From contig CAJINV010000020.1 of assembly GCA_905178155.1 (NCBI GenBank), forward strand, positions 248,001-312,000: 64,000 nucleotides of DNA, in the 5' to 3' direction. Positions within the stretch are counted from its first letter, which is position 1; every line of letters begins with the position of its first letter. A model generated the notes under the pieces. It had not been told where the DNA came from and did no database searches. It saw nothing but the letters and a program-made list of their open reading frames with translations. Shown here piece by piece: positions 1 to 60,041 of this stretch. This stretch comes from Amoebophrya sp. A120. Its lineage: Eukaryota > Protista > Dinoflagellata. Made by a program: the position numbers and the translations under genes.

Positions 1-2420
1 CAAACGCCTTGCGCAACAGGTACTTCTCGCACCGGGGCTTTCCCGTCTCTTCGTCGCGGCACATCTTCTGCGCTGGGTCCATGGAAAACGCAAAGTCCAG
101 AAACCTGCGGTCCAAGAAGGGCACCCGCGCCTCCAGACTCCAGGCCATCGTGGCCTTGTTCGCGCGGAGACAATCGTACTTGGACAGCTGCGCCACCTTG
201 CGCAGCGTTTCCTCGTGAAATTCCTCACGGTTGGGCGCCTTGTGGAAGTAGAGGTACCCGCCAAAAATCTCGTCCGCGCCCTCACCGGAGAGCACCATTT
301 TGATGCCCGTGGCCCGGATTTTTCGGCTCATCAAGAACATCGGGGTGGAGGCCCGGATCGTGGTCACGTCAAAGGTTTCGATGTGGTAAATCACCTGTTG
401 TGTGGTGGGGAATGTGACCACGGGGATAATTCTTCTGTTTTTGCAAAATGTAAAGAGCGCACTACAAGAATAGGTGCTGCATTGACATTCACCTGCACGG
501 TTGGTTCTTCTGTGGAAGCGAATTTACGCAACTCGTCGTACCGAGTTTGCATATCTACGCAGTTTTACTCTACCCGCAACAAGCGGCACCTGTTCCGGAC
601 TTCCAAGCTCCTGCATTTTCACAAGACCTAGCACCACCTAGAGTAGCAAAGTACCTCTCGCAGCGCGTCGATTCCCTGCTGCAAGGTAAAAGTGTAGGCG
701 TGATGCACCGTTCCGAGAAAATCCGCTACTTGCTTTGCCGCCTTGTGGTCGGGACTGTTTTCGAGGCCGATGCAGAAGGAGTGCAATCGCGAAAGTCGCA
801 GCGGTGCCTCCGACCCGCTCTGTGCGCACTGATCGGCGCCCTGCGCGCGGATGGCCTTGGCCGTGATGGAAGCAACCAGGGAACTGTCCAATTTATGCAT
901 GGGAAATACGGGGCTCCGCTAGTCTGAAAAGAAGTAGATTTTTTGTACGTTCAGTTTAATTTCCACGCGAGGAAGGGAGCACATTGCGGTACTATTAGCG
1001 CGAAACAACGCTGCCTCACTGTTGGTACGCTCAGAGCGACTCCGCGACGTTGCGGACTACGCATAACCAGAGTAATTCCTAAAACCTGTGGTGCCTACGT
1101 GCGCATTCTAGAACACTGCATTGTGCGTATTCATCCGAGAGTTTCTGCATGACAAGCTAAATCCACCGTCTCCTTCTTCCAGACCCGCGGAACATGAACA
1201 TCGTATTTCCCGTGCATACAAGCCTCCCGACAGCAAAACTCCGTACGGCACGTCCGCCATTAGATGGGATTTCACGGAGTCCTCAAAGGCGTGCCGCAGC
1301 TCCGCTGGCGTGATGCGCTTCTGTGGCGGCGGCGGGTAGGCGCTGAGGACCTTGTGGTCCTGCAGAAACCAGGCGGTTTTGCTGTCGCCGACTAAATACG
1401 GCTCAAACTTCTGCGTTCGCGAGTCGTACACCATACCGGGCGGAAATTCGTGGAACTGCACGCACTCCTTGACCAGCACCTTCATCTCCGACGCCACCCA
1501 GAAACTGCCGTCCTTCCCCTGGCCGTAGTAGAGGGGGATAATCCCGATCGCGTCCCGGGCCACCACGAAAGCCCCCGTTCGCTCGTCCAGGATCACGCAC
1601 CCGAACATGCCGCACACCTGGTTCTTTTTCAAAAACTCCGCGCCGTCCCGCGCGTAGAGGTGGAGAAGGTGTTGTGGAATGGAAAATTTGTTTTGTTTCC
1701 TCCGACAACAAGAGTGAATCGATACAGAGCTGCCTACACAAGCATACTAGCGCTTGCGCGTTTTATACAAACTCTACTTGTTGCCTTGTCGTGGAAGTAC
1801 ATATACAAGTGGAACATCCTCGTCCTCCGATGAAATTACTCACCAAACACAAAAGGAATGGACCCTGCTGATGTTGTGGCACACTTACAAAAAAGCCTCC
1901 CAAACTGTGGTAGCTACTTCTAACCGTTCTTTCTTTTCCTCCAAGACCAAAAGTGATTCTCCCCTGTTGTGTGGAAAAAACGAATAATAATCCCAGTTGA
2001 TAAAATTTCGCAGTCCGAGCCGGTCCTGGGGCAGGCTTCCAGTTCCGTGTCGCTGGTCCCTTCCTCCTTCACGCTCCCGCTGCTTCGGCTGCCGCCGGCC
2101 GCGCCCGTGGCGCGCAGGCTCCGGCGCAGGCGGATCTCGTCTGCCGAGGCGTCGAAAAACTTCTCCTCCAGCTCCACGTGGTTGTAGATTTCGCCGTTGA
2201 CGCCGAGGACCAAAGAATCGTCCTTCCGCGTGTAGAGCGGCTGGTCGCCAGATTCCGGATCGACAATGGCTAGACGTTCGTGACAGATGATGTTTTTCGC
2301 GGACACGTGGATGCCGCTCCAGTCCGGGCCACGGTGCCGGATCATCTTTTGCAACTCGATCGCCCGCTTTCGGTACGCCGGGGCGTCCGGCAGACCCAGA
2401 ATCGCCAAAATGCCGCACAT
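1..2420 (-). CDS. ASNS: Glutamine-hydrolysing asparagine synthetase (3' end runs off the window); introns ~1669-2003, 890-1219, 395-654
   Basis: Ntn start [89 protein letters not shown] reconstructed across exons. Confidence 0.96.
890..1219 (-). mobile_element. Introner-type intron (GT-TT) in ASNS
   Basis: 17-bp TIR TATGCAYGGGAAATACG (894-910 / 1202-1218, 1 mismatch); flanks GCTTG/AATTG; removal restores SGGL-DSS. Confidence 0.88.
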
Positions 2421-3347
2421 TATAATTGCTGCCCTTGAACAACTGAATCCTTTGTGCAAGTACTTCTTTGCGGGTTGAAAACAAATTTCAAATTCAATTG
2501 TGGTTATCCGTCCCGTCTTCAGCTAGAACGAAACCAATGGCAATCAACCACAGGTGCGTACTTGTGATGTGGGAGCCAAAGGAAAGACTCTTGCAGCGTG
2601 CTAAACTCTGCGGGTGGAATAAACCTAGTACGGGGGACAACGGGACAAATCCTTCAGAGGGCAAAGATAGGTACAGATAGGTAAAAGAGGCGGCCAAAAT
2701 CGGCTTGAAAAAACACCGGGGCGAAGAAGAAATGTTTGTCTCACAGAATCTGAAACGGAAAGACGGCTTACTATCCAGTGCACCAGCGTCGCTTGTTGAT
2801 GAGCCATCGCTTCAAGAAAGTGCTGCTACTTTGCCATAGAGATAGGCGCTACGCTGCGATGAATACGTATATTCGCTGATCTTCTTGAAACCGATCATCT
2901 TCTTGCACAACTACAGCGATAGAAAGATCTTCCGTGTCGTCCATGAAGTCGGTTTTTTTCTGTTTTGGCATTTTCGGATTTTGTATGATCTGATTTGGAT
3001 CTTGGTTCGCACGCGAGTGTGTACCGACGCAGACAGGGGTGGAATCGAAGTCCTGACCATTACTCTATCGTTCTGTAGAAACTCACTACTATAATCAAAC
3101 CAACCTACTGGGAAAAAGAACAAACGAATAGGTGTGCTCGTAATTTGAGGCAACTTCGTTGGCCTCAAGATAGCGCACAATAAAATGAAATCTTGCCGCG
3201 CATACCGCTACATAGAATTTTAGAAACGTATGAATCCAGAATTTGCCGCGCGCGGAACCGGAATACTCGGACTCATAACACGATTATCTTGAAAGGCATC
3301 GGATCGGTACTTACTTGCAGCGAGATGGCCCAGACAGGCAGACACGC

Positions 3348-57977: not shown

Positions 57978-60041
57978 ATGCGGAACACTTTCGTTGCTCT
58001 CGCGGTCGGTACCGCCACCACTACCGTGGTTTTGGCCGATGTGGCGCAAAAGTTTGAAGATTTTAAGATGAAATTCAAAAAGAACTACAAGTCCGCGGCG
58101 GAGGAGCTGCAGCGCTTCAAAATTTTCGCGGCCAACATGGAAACCGCGGAGAAAATGTCCCTGCTGGGTATGACCTGCTCAAACGTTACAATCTCAAGCG
58201 TTACAATAGAGTCTGGGTTTTGTATTGCATGATGAGCATGACAGACTCGGGCAGCGTTCCAGTTTCTGCAATACAAATTTCGCGAGATTGTAGTGCGGAT
58301 TGGGAGTCCAGAACTTGTCATGCGCTATCCTATGAGGGTTGGCTAGATAATGCTCTTCTTGCAAGACAAATTCCAGACTCTATTGTAACGCTTGAAATTG
58401 TAACACCTGAGCAGGTTATACTGGACCCGAATGCGAAGTACGGGCATTTGTCCCCCATGGCGGATTTGTCCGAGTGGGAGTTCGGAAAATACAACACGTT
58501 GAAGGTACTGTGTCTTCCTAGCTCGAGCTTTTGCAGCAGAAAACAAAGGGCTGCTTGTATCAAATCTGGCATTGTTCAAAATGTTGTTTATCAAGCGTAG
58601 TGCGTGTTTATTGCTAGAGCAACTACATGATTCGCATGAAAAAAACTTTTTCTCCAGTCTAAATGTTTTCTCCAAAAACTACCTCCAGGTCACCAAGTCC
58701 GATCTCCTCGCGCACGAGCAGAAGGTGATTTCGGTTCCCGTCACCTCCGCAGCTTTGCCGACCGAGTTTGATTGGCGCAAGAAGGGCGCGGTTGGACCGG
58801 TCAAGAACCAGGCCCAGTGCGGGTCCTGCTGGGCGTTCGCGACCATTGCAAACGTGGAGGGGTCCAACAAGTTGGTAAACGGGGAATTGCTGAGTCTGTC
58901 GGAACAAGAGCTGGTGGACTGCGACGACAACGACAATGGTAAGGAAGTAAGTAAGTAAGAAGCACCTCTGTTTACTTTCGCTGAACAAGCGTGCTTTTTT
59001 CATGTAAGACCACGCTGCACAAGAGTGAGAAAGCACGGAAATAATGCGGAATTGCTGTGGGAGCAGCAACTTATATCGCGGACCCTGCAACCAAGAAAGA
59101 TTTAATCGTCCCATCGTGACTCTATCAGGTTGCAACGGCGGTCTCCCGTCCAACGCCTACAAGGATATGATTGACAACGATCTCGGCCTGGAGCTCGAGT
59201 CCGCCTACGGGTACGAGGCCCACGACTCGAAGTGCCGCGCGAAAAAGGGCCTGGAGAAGGTTTACCTGAAGTCCTGGGTGGCCATTGGGAGCAACGAGGA
59301 CCAGATGGCCGCCGCCCTGATGAAGTACGGACCGCTGGCGATTGGGATCAACGCCGGGCCCATGCAGCTCTACATGGGCGGGATCAGCGACCCCTGGATG
59401 TGCAACCCGGCGGCGGTATGAGAGAGAAAAAAGCATAGCATAAGCAGTTGTATTTGTAAAATGCAAAAAATGAATCTGGGAACTACACGAACAAACCTGT
59501 AATAGGCGGGTCTTTCAGAAGCCGAGTGTTTCGGGTACTTATTATGCAAGTCAGATTTGTCTGTCTACTCAGCTGTTTCTGCATTTTTGCAAATGTGACA
59601 AGCTAGCCGCTTTTTCTCCGGTATAGGCTTTGGACCACGGAGTGGCCCTGGTTGCCTTCGGCGAGGAAGATGGAAAGCTGTTTTGGACCATCCGGAACTC
59701 CTGGGGTATTTTTTTGATGCATGGTTAGGTAGGAGGATCTGCAATAAACGAAAGATATCTTCGAGCAGAACAAGCATGGACTCAGCATCTAGGTGTTTAT
59801 CTATCAAGCGGAAGAAAGCTGTTAATGCAACTTGCTTCTGATGTGCCTTGCGCAGGATCACCGCAGTGTACTAACATGCAAAGAAATAAAACAAACTGCA
59901 CATCACCAAACAGGCGCCGACTGGGGTGAGGAGGGTTACTACCGCATCGTGCGCGGGAAGGGCAAATGCGGGTTGAACCGCATGGTCACCTCCGCGATCG
60001 TGAAGAAAGCCAGTAACACCGCCACCGAACTGCTGGAGTAA
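57978..60041 (+). CDS. Papain-family (C1A) cysteine protease with signal peptide and I29 prodomain (cathepsin L/F-like), 6 exons
   Basis: [53 protein letters not shown]; intact Cys/His/Asn triad. Confidence 0.95.
58168..58424 (+). mobile_element. Introner (GT-GG) with ~48-bp TIR
   Basis: TATRACCTGCTCA...GTTACAATYTCAAGCGTTACAATAGAGTCTGG at both ends; flanks CTGGG/CTGGA; restores [10 protein letters not shown]. Confidence 0.92.
59416..59629 (+). mobile_element. Degenerate introner in the protease gene (GT-CT, or GT-AG if cut at 59626)
   Basis: Ends TAT..GAGAAAAAGC..TAGC inverted; flanks GGCGG/GGCTT. Confidence 0.65.

Follow-up and report, generated by a model that had tools for sequence, protein, structure and literature searches.

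The 64,000-nucleotide (nt) stretch of the Amoebophrya sp. A120 genome analysed here (the window; contig CAJINV010000020.1, forward-strand positions 248,001 to 312,000) contains genes interrupted by introns built like small transposons, whose terminal inverted repeats (TIRs) begin with TAT, end with ATA and lie within a 5-bp target-site duplication (TSD). Among the host genes, Pfam identifies an asparagine synthetase, an FKBP, a SelR/MsrB protein, a cation/proton exchanger, eIF3a, a MORN-repeat protein and a papain protease; no confident Pfam family was obtained for P0116, P0117 or a tandem gene family. Three exons (37081-37809, 59128-59415 and 43512-44936) are 100% identical to NCBI proteins of A120, a fourth is a 100% match to its own full-length protein P0117, and the elements in the window are introners that occur in the A120 genome. 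As these exons match A120 proteins and the layout of the ends is the one reported in the parts of the A120 genome paper considered here (PMC7789003), the elements themselves are already known, as the first-pass annotation of this DNA had stated. That paper (Farhat et al. 2021) describes A120 introners with inverted repeats consisting of TAT, 7 variable nt and at least 3 A, flanked by direct repeats of 3-5 nt, and reports about two thirds of A120 introns as non-canonical, with the splicing rule left open in the sections considered.

An independent rebuild of the inventory yielded, across 10 genes and between positions 890 and 59629, 27 elements with the TAT...ATA layout in intact or eroded form (Table 1): the 26 listed before plus one with an AT donor. 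Eleven of the 27 keep a perfect 5-bp TSD, and these are the same eleven as in the earlier list. When each intron is cut 1 nt before the 5′ TIR and 4 nt after the 3′ TIR (the -1/+4 register), the donors are GT in 13, AT in 7, CT in 6 and TT in 1, the acceptor is AG in only 4, and the GT-AG pair appears once, in agreement with the earlier counts. Every element would introduce in-frame stops if kept (27/27, 1 to 14 stops each), and excising it together with 5 nt restores the open reading frames (ORFs), including the motifs SGGLDSS, TKDSPCECHY, SLLDPNA and PAALDHG, so that the repair of protein motifs claimed at first is recovered. The window also carries at least 29 ordinary GT-AG introns, which the first-pass annotation did not mention, and an Rfam search of the window gave no match and no small nuclear RNA (snRNA).

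The position of the cut was read from the contigs of two runs (X1 and X2), assembled from one sample and aligned to window positions 1-20000; their label as RNA is a guess of the tool used, but the contigs also lack four GT-AG introns. Fifteen of the 26 joints were displayed, comprising ten at TIR elements, four at GT-AG introns and one, 8220/8650, that was set aside as stemming from a paralogous FKBP transcript (its short side spans 21 letters, and its loose ends lie at 8198 and 8670). All ten joints at TIR elements remove the element plus exactly 5 bases, leaving one copy of the target and an unchanged mRNA, in agreement with the seamless removal that the first-pass annotation had inferred. 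In three of them, in the asparagine synthetase and FKBP genes, not a single base is repeated at the junction, and all three fall exactly at -1/+4; the other seven are compatible with this register (offsets, counted as upstream TSD bases inside the intron, of 0-3, 0-3, 0-2, 0-4 or all). For an offset allowed to vary over 0-5, all ten joints would fit offset 1 with a probability of 8.6e-4, and any one shared offset with a probability of 5e-3. A GT-AG placement is possible in only one of the ten.

Beyond 20 kb, support for the junctions comes from gene models, from orthologues or from the continuity of ORFs. The proteins of the gene models, which derive from transcript alignments that impose no GT-AG constraint, span nine further TIR introns, and each of the nine is compatible with -1/+4. 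At offset 0 the protease would carry G in place of D and V in place of L; D and L are both invariant in 8 aligned proteins, and the papain orthologues require one or more upstream TSD bases to belong to the intron at both junctions. At LLDP the gene model thus allows only an offset of at least 1, and at DSPC the RNA joint lies exactly at -1/+4.

Template switching of the reverse transcriptase across a hairpin between direct repeats is a recognised source of false introns, and could in principle create such junctions in complementary DNA (cDNA) contigs; alternatively, nearby GT/AG sites could be used, as at the protease intron 59416..59629, where a GC-AG placement 3 nt upstream yields an identical protein, the two placements differing in GCG against GCT. 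Nine of the ten RNA joints, however, are unplaceable as GT-AG, the spliced proteins agree with their orthologues, and the in-frame stops of retained elements, together with the three joints free of any repeat, exclude a reverse-transcription artefact so firmly that we regard this explanation as extremely improbable.

We are highly confident of a fixed -1/+4 register, although several points weigh against it. Only three junctions are exact, and they derive from contigs of a single sample; since contigs lose rare isoforms, minor offsets are possible. Seven RNA joints are ambiguous, and 17 of the 27 elements rest on evidence other than RNA. In the published description, splice sites are called variable relative to the hairpin, with inverted repeats at 1-5 nt and the border unknown (PMC7789003, Fig. 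3 legend), a variability that in our own reading reflects TSD ambiguity. One copy from another assembly (L007:693-988) is flanked by an 8-base rather than a 5-base duplication, and a -1/+4 cut would there add one codon. On the other side, all nine of the commonest non-canonical A120 motifs in Table S4 of the same paper have T at +2, which fits the -1/+4 register. Among the publications found, none states a fixed register for A120, and the figures of PMC7789003 (Fig. 3, S19-S25), which lie outside the parts considered, may show it. A reading of eroded eIF3a introns in the TIR register is rejected, since nine of ten fit GT-AG by gene model and orthologues. One eIF3a intron, at 35393-35519, admits both a GT-AG placement (35393-35516) and one in the TIR register (35396-35519), which are separated by a single synonymous base, GTA against GTT.

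A 24-base end pattern retrieved 71 stretches (L001-L071), all from assembly JACKZZ01, where the evidence is of DNA alone; none is orthologous to the window, which holds three copies of the same introner family (8682..8965, 26995 and 33990). Among 47 distinct complete copies the 5-bp TSD is perfect in 41, has one mismatch in 4 and is odd in 2, and codon usage orients 30 of the copies, 16 one way and 14 the other. These are traits of MITEs (miniature inverted-repeat transposable elements): TIRs, a TSD of constant length and variable sequence, and insertion both ways; no transposase was found in A120 according to the sections of PMC7789003 considered. A scan of the window and the 71 loci, scoring the conserved end motif with no TSD or middle-stem term and retaining ORF-preserving pairs, found 107 pairs, 73 of them with a perfect 5-bp TSD, against 4, 1 and 4 matches in three shuffled controls, none of which had a TSD identity of 4/5 or more; about 38 of the 107 are members of the family with which the loci had been retrieved, and a number of low-TSD matches in the window are false pairings.

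These copies also bear on the independence from GT-AG that had been claimed at first and that stands: of 45 insertion sites, 6 could supply GT/GC-AG when every offset and both strands are considered, and of 47 oriented perfect-TSD elements from several families, 4 could do so at some offset. In contrast, the GT enrichment once offered in support of the register does not serve that purpose, because fresh insertions lack it (G at +1 in 11/47, with a flank background of 31%), so that the register rests on RNA instead. The higher share of G at +1 in the window (13/27 against 11/47, Fisher P 0.04, across different assemblies) could at most suggest that G became commoner later. The 47 oriented perfect TSDs lean towards N-C-A-G-A (C2 in 19, A3 in 19, G4 in 22, A5 in 23), in part a palindromic target choice and in part resembling a proto-splice site, AG|R, with uncorrected P values of 0.003-0.07; the first base of the downstream exon, at which euglenid nonconventional introns have a purine, is a purine in 34/47 (P 0.07), and A alone in 23/47 (P 0.003, uncorrected).

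The anatomy of the ends was derived from the 48 introns whose borders are given by RNA or by a gene model; at -1/+4, 18 of them are non-GT-AG; ambiguous joints were placed by choice, so the result means that a fitting placement always exists. All 18 fit N-TA...A-Y-A-N4 (T+2, A+3, A-7, A-5), a pattern present in only 4 of 29 GT-AG control introns, and the T at +2 noted by the first-pass annotation is invariant in them. T follows at +4 in 17 and at -6 in 17, G or C at +5 in 18 and a purine at +10 in 18; the A120-type end is visible as TAT in 17/18, at least two A at +12..14 in 14/18 and TTT at -15..-17 in 16/18. The layout is thus a start N-T-A-T-S and an end S-A-Y-A-N4, with a second block of AAA (+12..14) facing TTT (-15..-17), and the last four intron bases are free. 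In the three old introns whose cut is mapped exactly, TAT, A-Y-A and TTT persist despite a TSD identity of 0, 1 and 3 of 5, and the pairing between ends peaks at -1/+4 (11.6/15, versus 5.1-7.6 off register and 5.9 in the GT-AG set). The signal very likely lies in the TIR ends.

Position counts revealed no branch-site consensus, which counts against our interpretation, and the internal introner motif GCAT-N-ACAA has been rejected for now as a branch site, its sense to antisense ratios of 10:16 and 2:7 not favouring the sense strand. GCAT-N-A(C/G)AA or its complement occurs in 6 of 29 GT-AG introns, which lack TIR ends (Table 1), with no occurrence in 10.7 kb of exon or in 10.5 kb of intergenic DNA. 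Some canonical introns may be old introners whose ends were lost once GT-AG sufficed, and introners seem absent between genes. As a separate observation, the 29 canonical introns have no pyrimidine tract, their 3′ ends being A/C-rich, G-poor and terminated by CAG|G.

The first-pass annotation had gone further, proposing that the geometry of the RNA stem positions the cuts. This part fared less well: the measuring may instead lie in the terminal motifs read as sequence, and we would only lean slightly towards pairing being required. In its favour, the ends of one intron pair more strongly with each other than with those of other introns in terms of energy (dG -15.4 vs -8.3), the predicted minimum-energy folds of the three exact, old introns join their ends, and the non-Watson-Crick cases at +12..14 are four G.U and no A.C. 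Against it, cross-intron pairing already reaches 9.6/15 compared with 11.6 within introns, so most of the pairing comes from the common motif; G.U shows no excess over A.C either in the window (23:16, P 0.34) or in the other assembly (18:28, P 0.18); the fourth pair (+5/-8), adjoining TAT/ATA, is Watson-Crick in only 7/19; the predicted probability of terminal pairing is 0.00-0.22 in 6/18 introns, and 0.18 in one exact case; the fold z-scores of the three exact introns are only -0.7 to -1.7; and the transposase could maintain the two motif blocks in young copies. Some young families have a 4-by-4 loop beside TAT/ATA, and TSD age and middle-stem pairing are not significantly related (rho 0.28, P 0.16).

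Much of this would suit a purely linear reading of the ends, with N-U-A-U as donor and, as acceptor, a U-tract followed by A-Y-A four bases before the cut, possibly with a branch adenosine at a fixed distance, and with the hairpin as a by-product of transposon origin. The closeness of cross-intron to self pairing, the register kept by old introns with weak predicted stems, and the terminal triplets TAG, TAC and ACA, which break pairs without compensation while retaining T+2, A+3, A-7 and A-5 (in tiny numbers), all point in this direction. We consider it unlikely nonetheless: the energetic advantage of self pairing and the four G.U exceptions speak against it, no yeast-like branch consensus precedes A-7 or A-5, and the motif is short for a stand-alone signal.

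Taken as a whole, our interpretation, to which we assign a probability of roughly 0.6, is that copies of non-autonomous transposons in exons are cut at -1/+4 at every exactly readable junction, their ends probably being read as one splice signal with fixed spacers. The copies sit in exons with 5-bp target duplications, and the splicing machinery would likely read both transposon ends as a single two-block, self-complementary signal. The two ends would pair, bringing the cut sites close, and the terminal bases would probably also be read as sequence, given that T+2, A+3, A-7 and A-5 are invariant while the middle stem is often mismatched. Because the 1+4 spacers add up to the 5-bp TSD, one target copy is left, the mRNA is unchanged and removal is seamless; being an inverted repeat, the signal would function in either orientation.

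As for the cutter, which is the weakest step, it could be a U2/U5/U6 spliceosome altered so as to need neither G+1 nor the final AG, the TIR motif standing in for U1 and the usual 3′ signals. A spliceosomal origin seems to us somewhat the better bet: the GT-AG donors of the window are GTA in 27/30, with the same T+2/A+3 as the TIR introns; one young copy is GT-AG in the -1/+4 register; the internal introner motif is found in canonical introns; and the sections of PMC7789003 considered report for A120 the snRNAs U2, U4, U5 and U6 together with most of the spliceosomal proteins, but not U1. Alternatively, a dedicated nuclease and ligase, independent of the spliceosome, would cut at a fixed distance from the terminal helix and free the intron in circular or linear form, as has been proposed for the nonconventional introns of euglenids. 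In favour of such a machine, neither G+1 nor a final AG is needed; the 3′ spacer exceeds the 5′ one by 3 nt, as it does by 2-3 nt in Euglena (PMC12501133, in part); the GT-AG and TIR classes are sharply distinct in end pairing; and U1 is missing from the published A120 set. This alternative appears doubtful: T+2/A+3 are shared with the GT-AG donors, the G+1 frequencies of window and fresh copies differ, and G.U pairs show no sign of selection.

Among known systems, the A120/A25 introners themselves share with our description the inverted and direct repeats, RNA-supported non-GT-AG borders and a proposed exon-joining hairpin (PMC7789003, in the parts considered), the difference being that here the borders resolve to one -1/+4 register, accompanied by a TSD of 5 bp and an end motif in two blocks. 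In A25 the repeats start with TTA and the commonest donors are all TT. Other Amoebophrya strains have GT-AG introns and a U1, as far as the sections of PMC12005148 considered report; AT5 and Kv are strains with GT-AG only. The closest parallel is found in the nonconventional introns of euglenids (Nomura et al. 2025), for which the available parts of PMC12501133 and PMC11282704 describe no GT-AG, a paired terminal motif, fixed spacers between this motif and the cut (tested by knock-in), GT-AG introns alongside, an unknown machinery and a suspected MITE origin. The Euglena motif, however, is CDG/CHG at spacers of 3 and 5-6, whereas that of A120 is TAT/AYA at 1 and 4 (PMC12501133, in part); CDG at +4..6 and CHG before N5-6 do not occur in the A120 ends N-TAT-S / S-AYA-N4. 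Unlike in Euglena, the A120 spacers are a 5-bp TSD split 1+4, the two lineages are unrelated, and full-length circular release has been shown in euglenids only (same sources). The A120 elements work like the euglenid code but are not members of that family: on the sources considered, the principle of placing cuts at fixed distances from paired terminal motifs is known from Euglena, with other motifs and spacers than in A120.

MITE-derived introners (Gozashti et al. 2022, 2025) also combine TIRs, TSDs and seamless intron gain, but they recruit or carry GY and AG (PMC9860276; PMC12130899, in the parts considered), which are available here in no more than 6 of 45 insertion sites; the GT/GC donor and AG acceptor of U2-type introns are likewise lacking, with GT-AG in 1/27 at -1/+4 and 4/47 at any offset. 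Hemistasiid diplonemids resemble A120 in a majority of non-GT-AG introns, paired ends and a near-complete U2 spliceosome; they differ in the GC-rich pairing of their ends, and no TSD-defined register is described in the sections of PMC12621601 considered. A broader reading, to be held tentatively, is that A120 would possess a pathway independent of that of euglenids, which ignores GT and AG, measures from the paired ends (1 base on the left and 4 on the right) and removes any exonic insertion, whichever its orientation, without trace, the cutter being either a rebuilt, U1-less spliceosome or a new nuclease-ligase.

A single register turns borders regarded as “highly variable” into one code usable by gene finders, and explains why entry into exons could have been cost-free for thousands of transposons; such a fixed code likely lets almost any exonic insertion become a clean intron. 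With A120, a fixed-spacer code like that of Euglena is present in two unrelated lineages, which points to a repeatable route by which transposons re-train splicing.

Table 1. TIR introns of the window and GT-AG introns with the internal introner motif. Ends give the first and last two intron bases at -1/+4; DNA, evidence from DNA only.
Host gene	Positions	Strand	Ends	TSD and remarks	Junction evidence
Asparagine synthetase	890..1219	-	GT..TT	GCTTG/AATTG	RNA joint 888/1219, offsets 0-3 equivalent
Asparagine synthetase	1669..2003	-	TT..AC	Eroded, T-TAT...ACA-ACAC, TSD 1/5	RNA joint 1668/2004, zero ambiguity, -1/+4
Unnamed tandem family gene	3773..3984	-	AT..TG		RNA joint, offsets 0-3
FKBP	6874..7244	-	CT..CT	Eroded, C-TAT...ATA-CCCT, TSD 0/5	RNA joint 6873/7245, zero ambiguity, -1/+4
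FKBP	7425..7733	-	GT..GT		RNA joint, offsets 0-2
FKBP	7843..8166	-	GT..GC	TAG replacing TAT	RNA joint, offsets 0-4
FKBP	8226..8410	-	AT..GG	Perfect, GTGGA	RNA joint, fully ambiguous
FKBP	8485..8649	-	GT..AA	Perfect, ACAAG	RNA joint, fully ambiguous
FKBP	8682..8965	-	GT..AG	Young; perfect, CGAGG	RNA joint, run X1 only
FKBP (DSPC junction)	9032..9262	-	AT..CT	A-TAT...ATA-CTCT	RNA joint 9031/9263, zero ambiguity, -1/+4
P0117	17494..17648	-	AT..CC	Perfect, GACCA	Gene-model protein
P0117	18737..19005	-	CT..AG	GGAGC/AAAGC	Gene-model protein, offsets 0-3
P0117	19085..19402	-	GT..AA	Perfect, CCAAG	Gene-model protein
Upstream of SelR/MsrB domain	23914..24176	-	CT..CG		DNA: ORF continuity
Cation/proton exchanger	25364..25523	-	GT..GG	CTGGG	DNA
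Cation/proton exchanger	25869..26142	-	CT..AG	GGAGC	DNA
Cation/proton exchanger	26248..26516	-	GT..TT	CTTTG	DNA
Cation/proton exchanger	26991..27274	-	GT..TC	AGTCG	DNA
Cation/proton exchanger	27782..28002	-	GT..TC	ACTCG	DNA
eIF3a	33989..35001	+	GT..CG	1013 nt with nested GC-rich insert	Gene-model protein and two orthologues, EREVLEN
P0116	41925..42172	+	AT..GG		Gene-model protein, offsets 0-3
P0116	44939..45194	+	AT..TC		Gene-model protein
P0116	46240..46429	+	CT..AG	Eroded	Gene-model protein
MORN-repeat gene	56320..56543	+	AT..CC	Eroded, TAT...ACA	DNA: EIHGLGVY restored
MORN-repeat gene	56769..57030	+	CT..CA	Perfect, TACAC	DNA
Papain-family protease (LLDP junction)	58168..58424	+	GT..GG		Gene model: offset >=1 only; D in 8/8 aligned proteins
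Papain-family protease (ALDH junction)	59416..59629	+	GT..CT		Gene model: offset >=1 only; L in 8/8
GT-AG intron with internal motif	18513-18662
GT-AG intron with internal motif	33505-33623
GT-AG intron with internal motif	35085-35244
GT-AG intron with internal motif	35393-35516
GT-AG intron with internal motif	36818-37066
GT-AG intron with internal motif	41642-41817

Some minor observations complete the description. The window encodes the spliceosomal protein SKIP/SNW1 (Prp45; PF02731) at 49417-51484. The unnamed tandem family consists of about six paralogues starting with MPPRRNR on the minus strand between 3400 and 14300, two of which were tested and gave no Pfam match. The GC-rich insert nested in the eIF3a introner (34140-34860) is 94% identical over 560 nt to the flank of another locus (L048:1123-1680), a second mobile element, and similar GC-rich non-coding DNA lies at about 29700-32100 and at 62400-64000. 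Loci L003 and L053 share the right flank and differ in the left one, either by recombination between copies or by an assembly join. A direct duplication of about 600 nt at 61190-62420, on either side of a single N at 61804, is probably an assembly overlap.

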